A DNA stretch of 64,000 bases from a virus: positions 32,168 through 96,167 of the IMG/VR virus record IMGVR_UViG_3300025132_000023; one strand, 5' to 3'. The stretch's first letter is position 1. Every line of letters starts with the position of its first letter. Both the position numbers and the translations under genes were made by a program. The notes under the pieces are model-generated. The model had not been told where the DNA came from, searched no databases, and saw only the letters and a program-made list of their open reading frames with translations. Shown one piece after another: positions 31,554 to 57,610 of this stretch.

Positions 31554-31640
31554 TGCGGGATTCCCAAGTATGGTCAAAGGGGCCGGACTTAAGATTCGGT
31601 GCGTAGTGCTTCGGGGGTTCAAATCCCCCTCCCGCAACCA
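31554..31640 (+). tRNA. tRNA-Leu(TAA) with encoded CCA
   Basis: Acceptor stem TGCGGGA/TCCCGCA, anticodon arm CCGGA-CTTAAGA-TTCGG, long variable arm, GTTCAAATC T-loop, ACCA end. Confidence 0.92.
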
Positions 31641-32150: not shown

Positions 32151-32278
32151 CGGAGTAATTATGAAACAGATTCGATTGGCGGAATTTGTTCCAGAAGAAT
32201 GTGATTGTGTAATTAAGGGATGGTTTAAGTCCCTCAAGCGCAATCCTTATAGCCAAAACAAAACAGGAGAGAAATGAT

Positions 32279-35898: not shown

Positions 35899-35955
35899 TA
35901 AGCCCTGTCGGGTAGGGAAACCTACCGACATGGGACAATAAATGAGGCGATAAAT

Positions 35956-36156
35956 ATGATATTGACTATAATGAACGATACTGGACATACCACCTTAGAA
36001 GTTACTGCTTCTGAGGTAATAGACCAAATTAACGACCACCCTACCCATTGGGTTTTTATTGATGGGGAAATCACATCGAGAGAGATGATTTCGGAAGTTA
36101 ATTGGGATAGTGTTGAGGATGTTTCCTTAACACAGGCTATTGTTGGCGGCTTCTAA
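35956..36156 (+). CDS. Ubiquitin-like (beta-grasp, ThiS/SAMP-like) protein precursor ending GG-F
   Basis: 66 aa; WVFIDGE...DVSLTQAIVGGF resembles ThiS/MoaD C-termini. Confidence 0.75.
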   Translation: MILTIMNDTGHTTLEVTASEVIDQINDHPTHWVFIDGEITSREMISEVNWDSVEDVSLTQAIVGGF

Positions 36157-36230
36157 GCCCCTTCAATACGCCTAAAATTTTAGAAGATTACTGAGCGCAG
36201 CCCCTTCGCGCTCGGTTTTCTTCGCCCTTA

Positions 36231-36632
36231 ATGGAGGTTAAGAACTTGATTGAAAATGATAATTTTAATTTTGTAACTGATTCACATTTTCCAAAGATAA
36301 TGGAAATATTTGGATGGTCTTTGAAGGAATATAAGACATATAACAATCTTGCAGTTGTAAGAGCAGACTTCTATCCTGTTGGATATGTATTAGGCTTTAG
36401 TAAGAAAGCAGTAATAGTATGTGATGGGGAGATGTTGATTACTTACAAAGGTAAAGAGTATAATGACTTTTCACAATTATATGAAGAATATGGGGATGGA
36501 GCATATGAAACATTTCCAGAATGGGACATAAAAATTGTGAAAGAATGGCTCATTAAAGGGCTGAACGGAGAATGGGTTTTCGCATTCTCAAACTTGGCAG
36601 AAATGCCTTATAGAACACAGGTGAAGTGCTAA
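36231..36632 (+). CDS. Hypothetical protein
   Basis: ORF upstream of RNR. Confidence 0.7.
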   Translation: MEVKNLIENDNFNFVTDSHFPKIMEIFGWSLKEYKTYNNLAVVRADFYPVGYVLGFSKKAVIVCDGEMLITYKGKEYNDFSQLYEEYGDGAYETFPEWDIKIVKEWLIKGLNGEWVFAFSNLAEMPYRTQVKC

Positions 36633-38503
36633 TGACAGAAGAAACAGCAGGACAGATAATGAGTAACGTTACGCATTACTTAAAGTATGCGAAATATAAA
36701 CACGATGAGCAAAAGAAGGAAACATGGGAAGAAACGGTAAATAGAAACCGTGATATGCATTTAAAGAATTTTGGGCATTTAGGCCCAGAAGTATATGAGG
36801 GTATTAATAACATATATGATAACTTTGTAATGACAAAGAAGATTCTACCTTCAATGCGCTCATTCCAATATGCAGGTAAGCCAATTGAAATTGCTCCAAA
36901 TAGCATTTATAATTGTGCATATTTGCCTATTGATGACATGGCTTGTTTCCATGAAATATTCTTTTTATTATTGAATGGAACAGGCGTAGGATATTCGGTG
37001 CAACGACACCACGTTGTCAAACTACCGGAGATTCGTAAACCAAATCCAGCAAGAAGTAGAAAGATTGTAATACAGGATTCTATTGTTGGATGGGCAGACG
37101 CTATTAAGGAACTATTTCGTTCCTATACAGGCGAACTGACACAAAAGCCTAGATTTATCTATGATGATATTAGACCCAAAGGAACTCCTTTGAAGACTAG
37201 AGGCGGTAAAGCACCCGGCCCCGAACCTTTGAGAGAATGTCTAGTTATTATAGAGAATATGCTTACACAGATGGAAGATGGTTCTTATCTATCTCCACTA
37301 CAATGCCATGATATAATTTGTCATATGGCAAACGCAGTAACTGCGGGTGGAAATAGACGAGCAGCATTAATCTCTTTATTTAGTGCAAACGATGAAGAGA
37401 TGAAAACGTGCAAGTCTGGGCATTGGTGGGATGGTAACTCTCAAAGAATGAGAGCAAACAATTCTGCCGTTATTCTAAGAAGCAAGGTAACTAAAGATTA
37501 CTTTAATTCCTTGTGGAAGAATATTGAGGAATCCGGTTCAGGAGAACCCGGAATCTATTTCACGCATGATAAGGATTGGGGAACTAATCCTTGTTGTGAA
37601 ATAGCATTGCGTCCTTATCAGTTCTGTAACTTAACAGAAGTAAATGCCTCTACAATAGAGGATGATAAGGATTTGTATGAAAGAGTAGAAGCCGCAACTA
37701 TACTTGGAACATTGCAAGCAACATATACTGACTTCTATTATCTGCGTGATATATGGAAGACAACAACTGAAAGAGATGCCCTTCTAGGTGTATCAATGAC
37801 AGGAATTGCTTCACAGAAGACAGACATATTAGATGTAACAGGTGCGGCACTTCATGCTAAAGAAGTAAACAAGAAGTGGGCAGGGCTATTAGATATTAAC
37901 CCTGCTTCAAGAATTACTTGTGTTAAACCATCGGGAACATCTTCGATGATATTAGGAACGTCAAGCGGTATTCACGCTTGGCACGCTGATTACTATATTA
38001 GAAGAATTAGAATCGGTAAAGACGAAGCAATCTACAAGTATCTGTATGAGAACCATCCAGAGTTAGTAGTAGATGAAATCGGTAACACAAGCGGTGCAAT
38101 AATTGAGATACCTCAAAAAGCACCAGAGGGAGCCTTAACAGGACAAAAAGAAGACGCTTTTGGTTTCCTTGAAAGAGTGAAGAACATGACTATTAGATGG
38201 GTTAACCCCGGACATAGTGATGGTCAAAACACTCACAATATCTCAGCGACTGTATATATTAATGACGGTCAATGGGATGAAGTTGGCGAATGGATGTGGT
38301 TAAACAGACATTATTATAATGGATTGTCTTGTTATCCAGAGATGGCAGTTTATACCCAAGCACCATTTGAAGCGTGCGATAAAGAAACTTACTTGAAGAT
38401 GTTAGTTCCATTGAGAGAAATTGATTTGACTAACATTGTGGAGTTTGAAGATAGCACCGATTTTAGTGACCCCGCTTGCGGTGGTGGCGGCTGTGACATA
38501 TAG
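36626..38503 (+). CDS. nrdJ: Class II (adenosylcobalamin-dependent) ribonucleotide reductase
   Basis: YNC, GTGVG, AGGNRRAA, TNPCCEI, CNLTE, KPSGTSS; C-terminal CGGGGC. Confidence 0.92.
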   Translation: MLMTEETAGQIMSNVTHYLKYAKYKHDEQKKETWEETVNRNRDMHLKNFGHLGPEVYEGINNIYDNFVMTKKILPSMRSFQYAGKPIEIAPNSIYNCAYLPIDDMACFHEIFFLLLNGTGVGYSVQRHHVVKLPEIRKPNPARSRKIVIQDSIVGWADAIKELFRSYTGELTQKPRFIYDDIRPKGTPLKTRGGKAPGPEPLRECLVIIENMLTQMEDGSYLSPLQCHDIICHMANAVTAGGNRRAALISLFSANDEEMKTCKSGHWWDGNSQRMRANNSAVILRSKVTKDYFNSLWKNIEESGSGEPGIYFTHDKDWGTNPCCEIALRPYQFCNLTEVNASTIEDDKDLYERVEAATILGTLQATYTDFYYLRDIWKTTTERDALLGVSMTGIASQKTDILDVTGAALHAKEVNKKWAGLLDINPASRITCVKPSGTSSMILGTSSGIHAWHADYYIRRIRIGKDEAIYKYLYENHPELVVDEIGNTSGAIIEIPQKAPEGALTGQKEDAFGFLERVKNMTIRWVNPGHSDGQNTHNISATVYINDGQWDEVGEWMWLNRHYYNGLSCYPEMAVYTQAPFEACDKETYLKMLVPLREIDLTNIVEFEDSTDFSDPACGGGGCDI

Positions 38504-39679
38504 TTATCACACCGTAAGAAATTTAAAAATCCTTAAGACAATTTGGCCTCTAATGCTAGAACAAGCAGAAAAAGAAATAGAAATACCAACTTCGACATAT
38601 GTTGGACACTATCGTGACGAATATATGTATAATAGCAAAGAGTCAGCACTAAAGGCTCTAACTAGATATTATGAGGACACAATTGTTGAACTAGAAACGA
38701 TTAAAAGTTTCATGAACTATGCGCGGAGACTTTTTATAGTATCGGGTATAGTAGGTAGTGATAGAGAGTATAATAAGTTAATCAAATTATACTACGATAT
38801 TGGAATGTATATAGAAGTGAATAAAAATGATGATTTGTAAATGTGGAAATAATAATTTTGAATTAATGATGAATGCCAAACTGCAATGCCAAAGTTGCGG
38901 TAAATATTGGAACCCCTTCTCTGCTCAAGAGCATAAGGTAATGGAGAAGGACGGGTTTCATTTCTTCTGGGTAGTAATGCGAAGCCATTTCTTAGATAGA
39001 TGGGATATTCAATTGCCCGACTTAGAAGAAGAAGAACTGTTAAAAGACTGTGTAGCGTTGAAGAACGTTAGTAAGCAAAACAAGGCTTACTTTACCCCAT
39101 ATCATGGGGGCCATCTTTTCTGGAAGTTTAAGTTTAACAAGCAAAAGAGAAGACTAGAATTAGAGTTAATAACAGTTACTTCAACTAAGGTAAAAGAGTT
39201 GAAGTATGAGAAGAACCCAAAGAAAATGGATATAAAATTTAAGTGATAAAATGGATGATAATGCAGTATTAGAATTATATGGTAAATTAAATAAAACTCA
39301 GATAATAAGTGGCTATAAAAAGTATCTTGAGGACAATAAGAGATTTCGTAAGAAGAACGATGGGTTTAAGGGATGTATCCCATCTACATTAGAAAGACCT
39401 AAGATTGGTGACACAGTATATTCTTGGAGACAATTCAAGAAACTGCCAAAGGCTTCTGTCATCGTTTACACCTTTAGCCAAGGGTGTGACGTAAAGTATT
39501 TGTCTAAGTTATTAGACAATGGTTTCTTTAGTAATAAGAAACATAAGCCACCGCAGAAGAAATTACCATCGCACTATCGTAAAAGAAGAAAGGTTCAAGT
39601 AATTGAAATGGGACGTTATGGTAAAACCGTATCCAAGTATTTTTGGCCGCACGAATTAAAGCAAAGAGAGGAAGAGTAA
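38436..39679 (+). other. Three hypothetical genes (38436-38840, 38827-39246 with Zn ribbon, 39251-39679)
   Basis: Packed ORFs on the coding strand. Confidence 0.65.
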
Positions 39680-39680
39680 A

Positions 39681-41024
39681 ATGTTAGATAAATATCAATA
39701 TACATATAATTGCACGTTCATAATAAATACGGCAGATGATAATCGTGATAACACGCAGATAACAGATGTTGATATTTATACTAGTTATCCTCTTTACCGC
39801 ACAAGAGTAGAAGGCCCGTCTTACCGAAAAGAAATCATGTGTCATTTGACTCGTTCAAACAAGAAAGGTGACCCTGTAATGCTAGGGATTGCAAACACTC
39901 TTGAGTCTACACTTAGATTGCAAACTAGCCGAGGAGGACGTTATGGGACTTCAGAAATGCCTGAGAATTTTAAGGTGGCTATTGTATTCCCTAACACAGT
40001 TACCGAATCAACCGGCGGGCCTATGATAATAAACATAGAGAAGAAGAACCCCTATTACTATCTAATGAATAACAGAGTGACTAAGAAGAACTGTTTACTC
40101 AATGTTGCTAGAACAATTTACCGTTCTTGTTTTGAAGAAGATTCATTGAAACTAATGGAGTATATGTTTAACATGATTGTGTTACCCGAAAACATCAAGT
40201 ATGTTTTGGAAAATAGAACCCCTTACTTCTTTATTAACGACCCTCTCAATAAAAAGGGACAACGTGAAAGAGTAGAGGTTAGATTAAACACAGAAATGAT
40301 TGGGCCAACAACCGCAGCGTTAGAAATCTCTGATGGTATTTGGGCCCCCATTGAAGTTAAAGACCTAGATGTGTTTATTAACTTTCATTATCATGGACAC
40401 CAGCGTTCTACTAAATGGATGCTAAGTCCTAAAGGACTATGGACTACTTTAATAGGTGAGAAACCTACTGAGTCACAAGAGCATTTAATGTATGAGTTTC
40501 TAACTCAAAACAGAACATCAGATTTGATTGAGGAAAGAGCAAAACAACTTATGCAAGATTTAGTGGATAAGTATCCAGAAAAAATTAAAATTGTTAAGTA
40601 TCAAAACAATCAAAAGAAATGGATTACTGCTATGTTAGTAAGAGGTAAGATGGCTGATTGGATTATCATAGATTCTGCATATAAGACGCAGATTCAAAAG
40701 GTAAAGACGTTCCTCTTTGTTCATAAGGATACTCTACTAACTGAGCCTGAACGAAGACATGGTATAACTGAAGTTAATAACTTTGATGCAGGTTTGTTAA
40801 GAGGCCCAATCTGTATTGATAACATTCATACTAACACTAGTCTAGGTGACCAATATGCTGCTAGAGCATTAGCACTACTAAATGATAATGTGACTATACA
40901 GTTAGTAAATACTATCCAAAGATATGTGCCTACAGCAGTATTGAATGGAGAAATGGAATCCCGATTTGACTTTGAAAACTTAACGGGTTCTGATATTAGA
41001 GATAGATTGGGGAATCAAATGTGA
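39681..41024 (+). CDS. 447-aa protein with putative C-terminal E2/UBC-like domain
   Basis: GPICIDNIH...ALALLND resembles the UBC active-site segment GxICLDIL...LLxD; E1 and JAB genes nearby. Confidence 0.45.
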   Translation: MLDKYQYTYNCTFIINTADDNRDNTQITDVDIYTSYPLYRTRVEGPSYRKEIMCHLTRSNKKGDPVMLGIANTLESTLRLQTSRGGRYGTSEMPENFKVAIVFPNTVTESTGGPMIINIEKKNPYYYLMNNRVTKKNCLLNVARTIYRSCFEEDSLKLMEYMFNMIVLPENIKYVLENRTPYFFINDPLNKKGQRERVEVRLNTEMIGPTTAALEISDGIWAPIEVKDLDVFINFHYHGHQRSTKWMLSPKGLWTTLIGEKPTESQEHLMYEFLTQNRTSDLIEERAKQLMQDLVDKYPEKIKIVKYQNNQKKWITAMLVRGKMADWIIIDSAYKTQIQKVKTFLFVHKDTLLTEPERRHGITEVNNFDAGLLRGPICIDNIHTNTSLGDQYAARALALLNDNVTIQLVNTIQRYVPTAVLNGEMESRFDFENLTGSDIRDRLGNQM

Positions 41025-41821
41025 ACTGTTTGAATTGTTCTAGTAATTTAATAGATTTTGACGACAGACTTGATGAGTTTGTATGTGGGGAATGCAGAAC
41101 CGTGTTGGTAAACAGAATACATGAAGAAGTATTACCAATAACTTACAAGCCTAATGTCACTCATGTGAGAAGTGGTATAAACACATTGCAGACAGAAGTA
41201 AATATGATTTCTTCATACTATGAGTTTGGTTATGAAGTAGAAGACGACATTATTGCACTAATCCGCGAAGTGATAGAAAGAGGGATGCCTTACTCCGAAA
41301 GAATGATAGCCAAGGCAATTCTTCATTACGTCTTTAAATGCCACTTAGTCCCTAACAATATCCGAAAGGATATTAGAGGAGAACGAGATAAACGGACATT
41401 TAAAAAGGCATTAGGTGTAATTAAGCATTATGTTGATACGCCTTGGTGGAGAACAAATAACCCGGAAGGACACATTGCGAAAATAGTAAGTAATATGTTT
41501 GTGGTGAGCGAAGCAGTTCCTGATGATTTTAGAGATAATATGATTAACGATGTAAAAAAGGTTATTCATTATATGGATGGGGTATTGTCGTTTCAAGGAT
41601 ATGGTCAGACTATGACAAACTATGCCATGATGGTATGGTTAGCCACTAGTGTGTTACTTAGAATAAACTTAAGTGTTAATGAAATAGCAGAAGTGTTCTT
41701 TGTATCGGCAAGTTCTATTAAGAAAAGATGGGACACAACACAACACTTGTTTAACGTTACAAGTAGAAGTATTCTAAACTTAACGTTAGAAGAATTTATA
41801 GAAGGAATAAGATATGAATAA
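41021..41821 (+). CDS. tfb: Transcription factor B (TFIIB/TFB) homolog
   Basis: N-terminal Zn ribbon CLNCSS...FVCGECRTV; C-terminal EIAEVFFVSASSIKKRW cyclin HTH. Confidence 0.75.
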   Translation: MNCLNCSSNLIDFDDRLDEFVCGECRTVLVNRIHEEVLPITYKPNVTHVRSGINTLQTEVNMISSYYEFGYEVEDDIIALIREVIERGMPYSERMIAKAILHYVFKCHLVPNNIRKDIRGERDKRTFKKALGVIKHYVDTPWWRTNNPEGHIAKIVSNMFVVSEAVPDDFRDNMINDVKKVIHYMDGVLSFQGYGQTMTNYAMMVWLATSVLLRINLSVNEIAEVFFVSASSIKKRWDTTQHLFNVTSRSILNLTLEEFIEGIRYE

Positions 41822-42398
41822 AGATAAAAGAAATATAATGATAATAGGGGTAGGGGGAATAGGTAGTTATCTTGCCCCACTACTAAAGAGAGTAGGTGTT
41901 TATTCTATGTTTTTGGCAGACCCAGATATTGTAGAAGAAAAGAACCTATTGTATCAAAACTTTCATAAGATAACTGTAGGAGAAAAGAAAGTTAATTCTC
42001 TACATATGAATGGTCATGTTAGAAGTGACTATCCTATAAGAACAGATGTTTGTCTTAGAAAAGATAAAATGGATTTAATTGTTTGTTGTGCAGACAACTT
42101 AGACATTAGACGACTTGTATACCGTCAAGGATTTCAAGACGATGCTAAAGTTAAATGGTTAGATTTAAGAGCGCAAGGTAGAAATGGGGCATTGATTAGT
42201 TACTTAACTGACCCCAAATTTAGCGATATGTTCTTACAAGGGCCGGAAGGTTCTTTCTCCTGTCAAGGAGAGCAAGATGAGATTACACCAGAGAGCGTGC
42301 ATTTTACCCACGTTGCAGTAGCAGGTATGGCTGCACAATGGATTCAAAGATGGTTCAATGGTGAAGAAGTAAAAGATAAAATGGTGATAAATATATGA
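41814..42398 (+). CDS. ThiF/MoeB/E1-family ubiquitin-activating enzyme
   Basis: IIGVGGIGS, DPDIVEEKNLLYQ, VCCADNLDIR. Confidence 0.88.
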   Translation: MNKDKRNIMIIGVGGIGSYLAPLLKRVGVYSMFLADPDIVEEKNLLYQNFHKITVGEKKVNSLHMNGHVRSDYPIRTDVCLRKDKMDLIVCCADNLDIRRLVYRQGFQDDAKVKWLDLRAQGRNGALISYLTDPKFSDMFLQGPEGSFSCQGEQDEITPESVHFTHVAVAGMAAQWIQRWFNGEEVKDKMVINI

Positions 42399-43075
42399 AA
42401 CACAAAAGAAGAGTTTGGAATGAAGAGGAAAAGAAATTCCTTTGGGAATTGCACACAACAAAGATGGATGATGGTAAGAAATTACCTCATGCTCTAGTAG
42501 TGCATTTCTTTAATGAAAGATATAAGAGTAGAACGCGTAGTTCTAAAAGCATAGAGTATATGCTAGGGAAGATGACTAAGGTTGAGGCAATAAAGAAAGT
42601 CAAGGTAACTCCTGACATGGAGAAGACAGTTGCTCAACTTACTAAGGCAATTGAAGAGAAGCCAAAGAAGAAGTCGATGCGAGGAAAGGTTGATAGACGT
42701 AAGTTTAATACTAAGAACGCTAGAAAGGCTTGGAACTATCCCGGAGATAAGTACCTAATAATGAATTGGGACGCAAATGATGAAAACAGAAAGAAGATTG
42801 CAAAACATCTAGGTAGAACACTACATTCTTGTCGTACTAGATTAAGTAAGATTAAGAAGCAACCAGATTATTATGATAAGTTGTTAGGAATGGATACTTC
42901 TACACATTCTGTTGTTATTGAACCTACTGTAAGTGAACAACTTGTGGCAAAGGTTGATAACGGCGGGGGGCTGTTGGAGAAATTGCTGAGATGGCTAGTC
43001 CACAGACGGCAAACCAAAGAACAACGTAAGATTGCAAAGATTGAAAGAAAGTTGCAAAAGTTGAGAGGGATTTAA
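42395..43075 (+). CDS. Myb/SANT-like repeat DNA-binding protein
   Basis: WNEEEKKFL and AWNYPGDKYL...IAKHLGRTLHSCRTRL. Confidence 0.6.
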   Translation: MKHKRRVWNEEEKKFLWELHTTKMDDGKKLPHALVVHFFNERYKSRTRSSKSIEYMLGKMTKVEAIKKVKVTPDMEKTVAQLTKAIEEKPKKKSMRGKVDRRKFNTKNARKAWNYPGDKYLIMNWDANDENRKKIAKHLGRTLHSCRTRLSKIKKQPDYYDKLLGMDTSTHSVVIEPTVSEQLVAKVDNGGGLLEKLLRWLVHRRQTKEQRKIAKIERKLQKLRGI

Positions 43076-43570
43076 ATGGTGTTAAACATGGTTGGTTTTG
43101 AAGTTAAGATAGAAGATTGGAAAGAGCAGATTCAATGGGCTTATCGGAACGGAAGCACTCAAGATTTCCATGATGCTATTTGGGCTATGTCAACATATGC
43201 CTTCGATATACCTAGAGAAGTGCAGGTAGTTATTGATAGACATGATATGCTCTTTATGAGTGTAGGCACACCGGGTTTTGTATCCTTTGATGGACATTTC
43301 CCTAAAGGCATGGTAATACCTTTGAAAGAATGGATTCATACTCATCCATTCGGGCAAGCATATTTTAGCGGAACCGATAAGAATACCGTAAAGATATGGC
43401 ACTCTCTGTTAGAGTCTGCTACTGTTTTGGGTAAGCATCAAAAAGCAGAATTAAAGTTTAGAGTATTAAACGATGGGAAAGACCATTTGTATACCCATAG
43501 TGAAAGAGAAAACAGATGGAACACAGTCAACCAAGTAATGAATACACTTTGGGGTGACGAAGAAGAATGA
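43076..43570 (+). CDS. JAB/MPN+ (JAMM) metalloprotease
   Basis: Upstream Glu (PREVQ) plus WIHTHPFGQAYFSGTD = HxH-x7-S-xx-D. Confidence 0.88.
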   Translation: MVLNMVGFEVKIEDWKEQIQWAYRNGSTQDFHDAIWAMSTYAFDIPREVQVVIDRHDMLFMSVGTPGFVSFDGHFPKGMVIPLKEWIHTHPFGQAYFSGTDKNTVKIWHSLLESATVLGKHQKAELKFRVLNDGKDHLYTHSERENRWNTVNQVMNTLWGDEEE

Positions 43571-54534: not shown

Positions 54535-56196
54535 ATGATAATAACAACATTAAGTAAGACCAATGAAGTAGCACTTCGTTGGAGAGAAGAGGGAGAAAGA
54601 AAAGAAGAGAAGATTTCTTTTGTTGATTTCAAACCATATTTTTATATTGAAGATGTAGACCAAGAAAAAGCACACCTTCGTATTAGAGAAAGAGGAGTAA
54701 ACACTCGTATTGAGTTATCTTATGAAAGAGGAGATTGGGTTTCCCTTGAAGGTAAGAGATTAAAAAAGGTTACTTGGTATCCTCCCTTGCCTTCTTACAA
54801 TAGAATACTTAAAAAAGAATGGGAACAAACGTATGAAGCAGATGTTCCTTTTCACTATAGATATGTAGTAGATAACTTGGAGTCAATACCAGAATATGAT
54901 TTAAGAAAGTGGTATTGGGATATGGAATGGCAACAGGGTGGAGATTTTGATGGTATGATAACTGCGTTAGTAGTTTATGATAACCATTCAAAAACCATGA
55001 ATAACTTTCATTGGTTTCCTCCTACCGCAGTAGGGGATTATTCTGACACAACATGGCGACATGAATCAGAAAAAGAGATGCTTGAGAATTTTATCCAATG
55101 GATGAATACTCGCGACCCCGATATGATGATTTCATGGTTCGGGTCTAAGTTCGATTTACCTAAACTTATTGAAAGACTTCTAGCAAACGGAATAGACCCT
55201 AGAAAAATTTCTCCTTACAACGAAGTGAAGGGAATATATTTTGATAACCGAGCAGGAGAACTAAAGTTATCAAAGGCAGTATCACATTATACCCCAATAG
55301 AACAACCCGTTAGAGGAAGAATTTTATTGAATTTAGATGTGGCATTTGAAAGACAATGGAACGACTCACAAAGAGGAACGCTCCCTTCTATGGCATTGGA
55401 TTATGTAGCAGAAATGGTTCTAGGTGAAAAGAAAATGGTGAGTGAAAAGTTCCCAGATAAAAATGAGTTTTTCGCTAAGGCATGGTTAGAAGAATCGCAG
55501 ACTTATATGGACTATGCTAAGAAAGATGTTGAGTTGCTTGTAAAGATAGATGAGAAAAATTATCTATCGGAGTCTATCCTTGCTTTACAGCGACTACTAA
55601 TAGCACCATTCGATGCGTGTTTTTATGCAAGCAATATGGGTAGCATATATTTTATGAGAAACGCTGATTGGAAAGCCCCAACAGGAAAAGAGGGGCCAAA
55701 GATAGATTATCAAGGGGCCATGATTTATGACCCTTCTGTTGAAGGAACATTTGGATTACATGAAAATGTTGCTGCGTTTGATTTCGCAGGTCTGTATCCT
55801 TCAATTACTGTAGCACTCAACATAAGTTGGGAAACCAAGTCTTCTGAAGAAACTGAATTTGGTATAAATATTTTAACTCCTAGAGATTTTAGTGATGAGG
55901 ATGAAGTCAATATGCTCTACTATAAAACAGATAAACTAGGTATGTTGCCGAAGGCTGTCCTTGAATTAAAAGAACTTCGTAATGAGTATAAGAAAAATAT
56001 GAAGGAAGCCAAGACAGATGATGAGTATTACAAATGGTATAATAACCAAATGGCAGTTAAAAGATTGATGGCATCTTTTTATGGTATCATTGGCTACCAA
56101 GGTTTTTCATGGGCTGACATTGATATGGCTGCTAGTATTACAGCAGGTGCGAGAAAAGCAATTAGAAGTGCAGCATTTAAGGTGATGGAACTATGA
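54535..56196 (+). CDS. polB: Family B DNA polymerase, N-terminal half (exonuclease, motifs A and B)
   Basis: WDME, FDLPKL, YAKKD, FDFAGLYPS, KRLMASFYG. Confidence 0.93.
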   Translation: MIITTLSKTNEVALRWREEGERKEEKISFVDFKPYFYIEDVDQEKAHLRIRERGVNTRIELSYERGDWVSLEGKRLKKVTWYPPLPSYNRILKKEWEQTYEADVPFHYRYVVDNLESIPEYDLRKWYWDMEWQQGGDFDGMITALVVYDNHSKTMNNFHWFPPTAVGDYSDTTWRHESEKEMLENFIQWMNTRDPDMMISWFGSKFDLPKLIERLLANGIDPRKISPYNEVKGIYFDNRAGELKLSKAVSHYTPIEQPVRGRILLNLDVAFERQWNDSQRGTLPSMALDYVAEMVLGEKKMVSEKFPDKNEFFAKAWLEESQTYMDYAKKDVELLVKIDEKNYLSESILALQRLLIAPFDACFYASNMGSIYFMRNADWKAPTGKEGPKIDYQGAMIYDPSVEGTFGLHENVAAFDFAGLYPSITVALNISWETKSSEETEFGINILTPRDFSDEDEVNMLYYKTDKLGMLPKAVLELKELRNEYKKNMKEAKTDDEYYKWYNNQMAVKRLMASFYGIIGYQGFSWADIDMAASITAGARKAIRSAAFKVMEL

Positions 56197-56698: not shown

Positions 56699-57610
56699 GT
56701 GGGTATGATGAAATTAGTATATGGACACACAGATTCTATTTATGTGCAAATGCCAATGGAACAAACAGAAGAAATTTTAGCACTATTGAATACCCATGTG
56801 CGGCAAGAGTTTCCTAATGTCTTAGGACTAGAAGAACATCCTATTAAATTAGAACATGAAAAATACTTTCAAACCCTTGGAGTAGGAACAACTAAGAACA
56901 GAAATGCAGGATTGATAAATTGGAAAGATGGAGAATATTTAGATGAACCTGAGTTTGTTATGACAGGCTTTGTGGCAAAGAGAGTAGCAATATCTGAGAT
57001 TGAAAAGTTTATACAAATGTCAGTATTGAGAATGTGGGTTGAGAAAAAGACAGAAGCGGAAGTAACTTCTTTTATCAAACTATGGTATAACAAAGTAATC
57101 TCAGGCGACATTGAGTTGAAAAAATTATCAAACAGAAGCAGATATAGGCCCGAAAGACTTACCTTCAAATGTAGTAAATGCAATAAGGAATCTACTGTAA
57201 AACAACTAATAGATTCACAAGTTAATTACTGTGTAAAGTGTGGGCATGAAGATTCTTTGACAACCTTAGAAGGAAAAAGACCTTCTATCTCGCAAGGGAC
57301 AGAAGGATTGATTTGGTATAATCAGCAGGATTTTTCAGAACCTATAGAAGATTCTTATTTGTATATCAGAGTATCCGATATACCAACTAGACCTACTTAT
57401 AAAAACCCAATAACAAATGTATGGAAAAGACCAAAATACATTTCAGCACCCACCTTGCAAAGATTAGGTGAGATAGCAACTACACCAGATTATCATCACT
57501 ATGGTAATGCTTTGGTGAAAAAAGCCGACCCAATTTATCGAGCGATGGGGTGGGACTTAGATAAAATAAAGTTCGATATAAATCAGAAAACATTAGATGA
57601 ATGGTGGTAA
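56699..57610 (+). CDS. polB: Family B DNA polymerase, C-terminal half (motif C, thumb, Zn-finger insertion)
   Basis: YGHTDS, KNRNAG, CSKC...CVKC, PIP-box-like QKTLDEWW. Confidence 0.9.
   Translation: MGMMKLVYGHTDSIYVQMPMEQTEEILALLNTHVRQEFPNVLGLEEHPIKLEHEKYFQTLGVGTTKNRNAGLINWKDGEYLDEPEFVMTGFVAKRVAISEIEKFIQMSVLRMWVEKKTEAEVTSFIKLWYNKVISGDIELKKLSNRSRYRPERLTFKCSKCNKESTVKQLIDSQVNYCVKCGHEDSLTTLEGKRPSISQGTEGLIWYNQQDFSEPIEDSYLYIRVSDIPTRPTYKNPITNVWKRPKYISAPTLQRLGEIATTPDYHHYGNALVKKADPIYRAMGWDLDKIKFDINQKTLDEWW

Follow-up and report, generated by a model that had tools for sequence, protein, structure and literature searches.

The window analysed here, a stretch of 64,000 nucleotides (positions 32,168 to 96,167 of the IMG/VR record IMGVR_UViG_3300025132_000023), is part of a complete 96-kb genome of a marine, magrovirus-like tailed archaeal virus, which confirms its presumed viral origin. 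It contains four genes of interest on the plus strand, encoding a ubiquitin-like protein (Ubl) precursor, a 447-aa E2-like protein, a minimal E1 and a JAMM/JAB protease, and all four reading frames lie where the original prediction had placed them. The genes from the E2-like one through JAB overlap or abut in this window. The proteins of the set are small and soluble-looking.

The Ubl gene (35956-36156, + strand) encodes 66 aa ending in IVGGF, that is, V63-G64-G65 followed by a single Phe. This acidic protein contains no lysine. Its proposed beta-grasp fold was confirmed by structure comparison, with a flexible tail, and the nearest structures are ubiquitin, ISG15, MoaD and BilA. The top ranks of the Foldseek list are held by ubiquitin, ISG15 and NEDD8, and MoaD, ThiS, TtuB, CysO and SAMP1 are among the fold neighbors. 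The profile of the family showed no match to PDB sequences. Only one of 30 family members matches Pfam ThiS (E=0.0014), and this applies also to the TIGR01683 and SAMP1 models, with one member each (E 0.0014-0.03 across the three models). One cluster of the family carries the JGI name "sulfur carrier protein ThiS".

The VGG is invariant and the tail beyond it variable, both in 30 aligned homologues and in 75 distinct sequences. In the latter, the tail is 0-2 residues long with 27 different forms, and GG is the exact C-terminal end in seven of them. This variability fits maturation by the JAB protease. Since Arg42 is the last Lys or Arg of the mature Ubl, trypsin would leave a remnant of ~23 residues instead of diGly, and diGly proteomics is therefore unsuited to this modifier.

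The Ubl gene is flanked by two hairpins on the plus strand, neither of which was equalled in stability by any of 200 shuffles. The upstream one (35903..35934; -20.6 kcal/mol, z -4.6) is followed by a GAGG ribosome-binding-like motif. The downstream one (36190..36222; -17.8 kcal/mol, z -4.55) is followed by a U-run and looks like a terminator. The next gene (36231..36632, + strand) encodes a 133-aa protein with neither a Pfam nor a PHROG match. By tblastn synteny, 53 of 80 relatives have it, and it is a candidate member of the system.

The E2-like protein (39681-41024, + strand; 447 aa) was modelled with AF2 at a pLDDT of 83. Its N-terminal region is variable and its middle domain conserved, with the motifs YxLENRxP and ALEISDGIW; a UBC-like domain forms the C-terminal part (residues 278-431; 40512-40973, + strand). 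The N-terminal domains have no recognised fold or relatives. In the predicted UBC-like domain, a helix and four strands are followed by a variable loop, Cys378 and then helices. Cys378 (codon 40812-40814) is located within an invariant G-P-I-C-I-D-N and is conserved without exception in sets of 26 and 55 homologues and in 13 very divergent ones, down to 23% identity. According to DSSP on the AF2 model, it comes after strands 341-348 and 371-377 and ahead of helix 388-400; in the model it thus sits after strand 4 and before a long helix, which is where E2s have their Cys. A variable loop ahead of the Cys is also described for BilB (PMC10557695).

In an unbiased structure search of residues 278-430 against 48,161 chains, the top matches were UBC-superfamily folds, and in a second comparison UBC, UEV and RWD made up 50 of the 50 matches listed. 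Chains 7yw1 and 9mc9 of UBE2O are among the structural matches. Among the best fold matches, the non-catalytic UEV, RWD and FANCL score the same Z as true E2s. An HPN motif is absent upstream of Cys378, where the 25-30 preceding residues vary in length and sequence; HPN is also missing from several accepted E2-like families. No match of the protein was found to Pfam (UQ_con, Prok-E2_B) or to the PADLOC E2 models, and its profile gave none among PDB sequences at E<=10. The alignment of the family to Prok-E2_B by hhalign had a probability of 0.15%, a deep profile search recovered the protein's own family alone, indicating an orphan, and a language-model search returned no named match. The family comprises 229 clusters, none of them annotated. 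The putative E2 of the original prediction is partly upheld, by the predicted UBC-like fold and the invariant Cys378, but not by an HPN motif or by a sequence or profile link to E2 families.

The E1 gene (41814-42398, + strand) encodes a minimal enzyme of 194 aa. Its assignment to the ThiF family is secure (Pfam PF00899, residues 7-184, E=7.6e-16, 58.4 bits against a cut-off of 28.1 bits). The residues expected of an adenylation domain include the GxGGxG loop at 12-17, D36, K59 and D94-N95. The loop, K59 and D94-N95 are invariant among the homologues, the last two having K86 and D130 of MoeB as counterparts, and an invariant Tyr47 occupies the Arg position of the NLxRQ found in canonical E1s. 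The N-terminal helix from which MoeB and ThiF derive their arginine finger is presumably absent, judged by length. No CxxC zinc motifs were found in the enzyme. Cys150 (codon 42261-42263), in S-F-S-C-Q, is invariant in 69 of 69 sequences. In the PDB, the E1 profile matches UBA5 (4.8e-11), Uba4, MoeB, Cap2 (7tsx), Uba1, MccB and BubCD; no solved E1 could be aligned with the C-terminal half of the enzyme, and Cys150 is a putative equivalent of the crossover-loop Cys. Several E1 clusters bear the JGI label alcohol dehydrogenase.

The last gene of the block encodes a JAMM/MPN+ metalloprotease of 164 aa (43076-43570, + strand), whose motif HTHPFGQAYFSGTD, at 43337-43378, reads HxHx7SxxD. The earlier assignment is well founded, as none of 71 orthologues departs from E48, H88, H90, S98 and D101. 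In the motif region only, the JAB profile matches AMSH-LP (7.9e-5), STAMBP, Sst2 and the archaeal Rpn11-like protein 6fjv (0.0019) of the PDB. Pfam Prok-JAB gives 17 bits, under its cut-off of 25 bits.

Two further genes are placed among the four. A TFB-like zinc-ribbon protein (41021..41821, + strand; weak Pfam Zn_Ribbon_TF match) is encoded by a gene that overlaps both its neighbors, at the stop of E2-like and at the start of E1. Of 77 loci, 71 have a CxxC...CxxC homologue between E2-like and E1; the gene has a fixed position in the block but is not known to take part in the chemistry. The 226-aa protein between E1 and JAB (42395..43075, + strand) appears Myb/SANT-like by eye, with weak matches to PHROG regulators. 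It is found by tblastn in just 13 of 80 loci and is a variable passenger.

Co-occurrence across viruses, by which the predicted set could be checked, was borne out, as all relatives examined whose contig spans the region carry the set. The order Ubl, E2-like, TFB-like, E1, JAB is held in every related viral locus covering the region, a divergent subgroup included. Of 80 related viral loci, 65 have the four genes together, arranged in a single order and on one strand; the remaining 15 loci are truncated. Order and strand are identical in 65/65 loci with the complete set. The gap from Ubl to E2-like is 259-592 bp in nine compact genomes, and E1 adjoins JAB, 4-13 bp apart, in five loci. Ubl is the best-conserved gene of the block, with a median identity of 63% versus 39% for the E2-like protein. 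Since the relatives are all of a single syntenic virus lineage, the co-occurrence is partly inherited gene order.

The set resembles several known systems and is distinct from each. BilABCD (PMC10557695) are bacterial ubiquitination-like operons in host defence islands, whereas the present set is virus-encoded. The Bil E1 has two domains (IAD/AAD), a CYS insertion and a zinc site; on the contrary, the viral E1 is a single adenylation domain. In sequence, the viral E2-like domain does not resemble the Bil or Cap2 E2s; it lacks the CEHH motif of BilB and is fused to ~270 further residues. The SAMP/UbaA/HvJAMM1 system is likewise archaeal and likewise combines a MoeB-like E1 and a JAMM protease with a small beta-grasp modifier that ends in GG. 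SAMPylation has no E2, however, while the viral set includes a linked UBC-like protein with an invariant Cys; moreover, the viral Ubl is in most cases synthesised with extra residues after GG, and no close cellular homologues of the viral genes were found. The pairing of E1 and JAB recalls Cap2/Cap3 of type II CBASS, and the PADLOC Cap2-type E1-E2 models match the viral E1 at 8e-11 in its N-terminus only, but the viral set has neither a cyclase target nor an E2-E1 fusion. The Ub operons of Caldiarchaeum and Asgard (PMC3082918, PMC5654768) are similar in their Ubl, E1, E2, Rpn11-like JAMM and archaeal context, 6fjv being the Caldiarchaeum protein matched by the JAB profile. They encode canonical, sequence-recognisable UBC E2s and a RING E3, neither of which was found in the viral set. 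The ubiquitin genes of eukaryotic viruses (the E2 I215L of ASFV, giant-virus E2s) are single captured host-like genes feeding the host pathway, unlike the full divergent set in a virus of a prokaryotic host. Finally, in hybrid E2/E3s of the UBE2O type the UBC domain is also C-terminal in a larger protein, and in UBE2O substrates are bound by the remaining domains; this likeness is an architectural analogy only.

We estimate a probability of roughly 0.6 that the set forms a Ubl conjugation cascade encoded by the virus. Our observations concern the folds, the strictly conserved catalytic motifs and the linkage among these genes, and from them we infer conjugation itself, each chemical step and the targets. 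Under an unlikely alternative, Ubl, E1 and JAB would perform an E2-independent, SAMP-like modification and the 447-aa protein would be a non-catalytic, UEV/RWD-like adaptor with a UBC fold, a target or unrelated. The hosts are Archaea, where SAMPylation requires a MoeB-like E1 alone (PMC2948915, PMC4895103), and the viral E1 is a small single-domain enzyme similar to MoeB and UBA5. The Z shared by true E2s and non-catalytic folds, and the missing sequence link to E2s, would also agree with an adaptor. On the other hand, Cys378 is invariant at the E2-equivalent site, with conserved neighbors, in a family diverging to 23% identity, and the place of its gene beside those of Ubl and E1 is conserved. 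To our knowledge, such a Cys is lacking in non-catalytic UEV and RWD domains.

A role as sulfur carrier, modelled on the ThiS, MoaD, CysO, QbsE or TtuB systems, is quite improbable. The trimmed Ubl would then be adenylated and converted to a thiocarboxylate, donating sulfur to a pathway of the host, for instance tRNA thiolation, cofactor or cysteine synthesis. The single matches and the one JGI name pointing to ThiS, and the sulfur carriers among the fold neighbors, are in its favor. JAMM trimming of carriers with GG plus a tail is known from the sulfur systems CysO/Mec+ and QbsE/QbsD, so this feature does not discriminate between the two roles. The reported absence of thiamine and molybdopterin genes was found to extend over the whole 96-kb genome (Pfam E<=1e-4; 103 ORFs, each 70 aa or longer), where ThiG, MoaE, CysM, TtuA/PP-loop, rhodanese and cysteine desulfurase were not recognised either, though host enzymes could take their place. 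The Foldseek ranking and the linkage of a UBC-like protein with an invariant Cys also speak against this role, and a lytic virus would hardly be expected to keep a sulfur carrier as the best-conserved gene of the block. It would be similarly surprising if the same machinery acted in counter-defence, JAB stripping host SAMP/Ubl marks off viral proteins while Ubl and E1 act as competitors of a host Ubl defence or redirect it. Bil-type bacterial defence puts Ubls on phage parts, as cited in passages of PMC10557695 and PMC12660748, and the many JAMM "deSAMPylases" of the archaeal Borg elements are read in this way (PMC12660748). Stripping, though, would need JAB alone, and a Ubl precursor, an E1 and a Cys protein kept together point to making conjugates, not just removing them; nor is a Ubl-based defence known in the presumed hosts.

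In the favored conjugation cascade, the VGG-Phe precursor would be trimmed by the JAMM protease to expose Gly65, and the same protease may also undo conjugates. The E1, presumed to be a homodimer like MoeB or UBA5, would adenylate Gly65, after which its Cys150 would probably form a thioester with the Ubl. The Ubl would then move to Cys378 of the UBC-like domain, and the N-terminal and middle domains of the 447-aa protein may act as an in-built substrate adaptor, as in E2/E3 hybrids, with host or viral targets finally receiving the Ubl on their lysines. Because the TFB-like gene is fixed within the block, these targets could be transcription or proteasome-linked factors. It is about an even chance that the set is a core module of magroviruses, a complete and self-contained Ubl cascade around a hitherto unrecognised, virus-only E2/E3-hybrid family, modifying host or viral proteins during infection.

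Magroviruses rank among the commonest archaeal viruses of the surface ocean. As far as we know, prokaryotic Ubl conjugation has been described so far as cellular, namely archaeal SAMPylation and bacterial Bil, CBASS and Bub; several systems of these types act against phages. The literature searched holds no description of a virus-encoded Ubl conjugation set of this type, and its magrovirus genome descriptions do not mention the four genes. Viruses of this group probably attach a ubiquitin-like modifier of their own to proteins. If this is true, a core set of Ubl, E1, E2-like protein and JAB in globally abundant archaeal viruses would place the same chemistry on the virus side. It would be the first Ubl conjugation system in a prokaryotic virus, and the sequence-orphan E2-like family with its in-built extra domains would be a new addition.

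The virus record is complete (96,167 bp), with the window spanning its bases 32168–96167. The portal, prohead protease, major capsid protein and tail tube of its structural arm are those of a tailed virus. The replication arm is of archaeal type and includes a split family-B polymerase (in two parts, 54535–56196 and 56699–57610, with a small ORF in between), an RFC-like ATPase, an ATP-dependent ligase, a Cas4-like nuclease, XPF, a class II ribonucleotide reductase (RNR) and a TFB-like protein. The published gene content of magroviruses, which are viruses of marine group II archaea, agrees with that of this genome (PMC5434244, PMC10768690). Other elements of the genome are a tRNA-Leu(UAA) at 31554–31640 and a T4 endonuclease V-like pyrimidine-dimer glycosylase in the non-structural arm (window 24883–63406; Pfam Pyr_excise, 7.3e-11). 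The structural arm (genome bases 1–56000; window 1–24000) also encodes a KH-domain protein and, in addition to the ligase of the replication arm, a further protein carrying an ATP-dependent DNA/RNA ligase domain (E=1.2e-29).

The four ORFs named in the original prediction are all present: the ubiquitin-like protein (Ubl, 35956–36156), the 447-aa E2-like protein (39681–41024, with the Cys codon correctly placed at 40812–40814), the E1 (41814–42398) and the JAB protease (43076–43570). They are located in the replication/early arm, every gene of which is on the + strand, with a consistent GC skew. Among 222 related IMG/VR loci, 80 were examined. E1 and JAB were found in 77 of them, the three misses being loci cut off at their ends, and Ubl was found in 67, the misses having a short upstream flank. 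The co-occurrence across viruses that had been proposed as a check was observed, since order and strand are identical in all 65 loci holding the four genes. Even in a subgroup with an E2-like protein of only ~24% identity, Ubl (ending IVGG-CY or IVGG-QN), E2-like, E1 and JAB genes follow each other in order. The neighboring genes vary: RNR is found in 49 of the 80 loci, three small genes after RNR in 17–23 and a Myb-like gene in 13. When RNR is absent, Ubl lies 259–592 bp from the E2-like gene, and in five loci the gap between E1 and JAB is 4–13 bp. In 71 of 77 loci a TFB-like zinc-ribbon gene (41021–41821) separates the E2-like gene from E1, and all 71 copies have the CxxC...CxxC pattern; in the window the gene overlaps both neighbors, and it may be a target or simply a syntenic early gene. 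Because all loci come from one syntenic lineage, this linkage supports, and does not prove, a functional tie among the four genes.

Ubl is the best conserved gene of the block, with homologues in 129 clusters (59–100% identity) on contigs up to about 100 kb. In their alignment V63-G64-G65 is invariant. The C-terminus that follows is variable; among 75 distinct sequences seven end exactly at GG, and the rest have 27 different tails, which with few exceptions are one or two residues long. Structures were predicted with AF2 for Ubl and for the full 447-aa protein. The beta-grasp fold, on which the original prediction depended, is present in the confident Ubl model (pLDDT 87), where the order of the elements is that of a beta-grasp and the tail is disordered. 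With this model, the first 50 Foldseek matches are all ubiquitin, ISG15 or NEDD8 (probability 0.96–1.0, ~21% identity). Sequence models barely detect the family, as Pfam ThiS, TIGR01683 and SAMP1 each match one of 30 members, and the Ubl profile gave no relevant match against PDB sequences. The nearest named cluster to Ubl in the ESM Atlas, a Thermoplasmatota ThiS-domain family at 0.83, is a lead only.

The mature Ubl is acidic (pI about 4.2). Its internal Lys residues are not conserved, being absent in 31 of the 75 sequences and mostly single, at positions 2–4, in the others, so Lys-linked Ubl chains appear unlikely. With the last Arg at R42 in addition, tryptic diGly proteomics, which had been suggested as a check, would not work; after trypsin, about 23 residues of Ubl would stay on the target. 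Stable hairpins (z about -4.6) are located on both sides of the gene, at 35903–35934 and at 36190–36222, the latter followed by UUUUCUU; given these elements, Ubl may be expressed strongly as a unit of its own. A 133-aa protein (36231–36632) follows Ubl in 53 of 80 relatives and could be a further component.

The JAMM residues of JAB (E48, H88-x-H90, S98 and D101) do not vary across 71 orthologues. Its profile matches AMSH-LP (7.9e-5), STAMBP, Sst2 and an archaeal Rpn11-like protein, and its Pfam Prok-JAB score is under the family cut-off. A variable tail after an invariant GG, next to an intact JAMM protease, follows the same logic as the trimming of BilA by BilC (PMC10557695). Matches of JAB to WD40 and armadillo proteins were rejected as artefacts of summed repeats, each stretch having E >1. 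The segment SGTDKNTVKIW, C-terminal to the JAMM motif, resembles a WD40 repeat and, in PDB sequence searches, causes spurious summed matches to WD40 proteins and to designed repeat proteins.

The E1 scores well over the Pfam ThiF cut-off, and its profile matches UBA5, Uba4, MoeB, Cap2, Uba1, MccB, UBA3, ThiF and BubCD over the first ~105 residues only. The Gly loop, D36, K59, D94-N95, the block D117-L-R-x-Q-G-R-N124 and Cys150 in S-F-S-C-Q are invariant. An invariant Tyr47 stands where canonical E1s such as MoeB and UBA5 have the Arg of NLxRQ, and the N-terminal helix and CxxC pairs of canonical E1s are absent. Adenylation is likely, not certain. The homologue search was filled by the E1's own family (1197 or more clusters at the 90% identity level), with distant relatives outside its view. 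Several of these clusters bear the JGI name 'D-arabinose 1-dehydrogenase-like Zn-dependent alcohol dehydrogenase'; the Rossmann fold probably led to this wrong label.

The E2-like family comprises 229 homologue clusters, none annotated. The N-terminal ~100 residues are variable and the middle domain is strongly conserved. In the C-terminal domain (residues 278–431), GPICIDN resembles the active-site stretch of E2s, and its Cys378, together with D390, Q391, R395 and D402, is invariant even at 23–30% identity. The HPN motif is absent. No match was found for the protein or the domain in Pfam, PHROG or PADLOC, and the domain retrieved nothing among PDB sequences and no named ESM Atlas cluster. The full-length model had no PDB match in Foldseek at the E<=0.001 level, E2s reaching probabilities of 0.3–0.5. 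BFVD returned only three unnamed family members. Against ten Cap2-type Prok-E2_B domains from Pseudomonadota genomes, whose reference profile is thin and poorly aligned, hhalign gave a probability of 0.15%; this value, no better than the negative controls, is not taken as evidence against a link. Since HPN and any sequence or profile link to E2s are missing, the 447-aa protein may be called E2-like by predicted fold, topology and context only, and is not assigned to a known E2 family.

Searched against 1.84 billion representatives, the domain profile retrieved only 158 proteins, and each of these has the same architecture or is a fragment of it. The divergent query protein P0336 matched no viral contig. 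The E2-like protein occurs in only three of 185,579 species genomes; each copy lies on a short contig in the MAG of a marine bacterium and is most likely viral DNA placed in the wrong bin. Contigs L084, L085 and L086 are of magrovirus type and carry the module inside MAGs labelled Maricaulis, Altibacter and Balneolaceae, a placement most likely due to binning error rather than to a bacterial host. The 1617-aa repeat protein P0378 has ten matches to positions 51–84 of the domain profile (E=2e-10).

In the searched literature outside subscription papers, no paper mentions both magroviruses and ubiquitin. Neither the main magrovirus papers nor the ICTV profile names ThiF, JAB or Ubl, and by title and abstract none of the five papers in which Poseidoniales, viruses and ubiquitin all occur concerns these viruses. 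The nearest precedents are the JAMM 'deSAMPylases' of Borgs (PMC12660748) and the bacterial Bil system (PMC10557695).

Ubl, E1 and JAB very probably operate as a system. A role in tail assembly, like that of the lambda-type Ubl/JAB proteins, was rejected because the genes are outside the structural arm. Alternatively, Ubl could serve sulfur transfer, possibly through enzymes of the host. However, a Pfam scan of the whole genome (103 ORFs, none shorter than 70 aa) recognised only replication, repair and structural families, with no acceptor enzyme, rhodanese or RING, which also bears out the lack of thiamine and molybdopterin genes noted originally. The best reading, with a probability of about 0.6, is that these viruses encode a conjugation cascade in which the 447-aa protein would act as an E2 or an E2/E3 hybrid.
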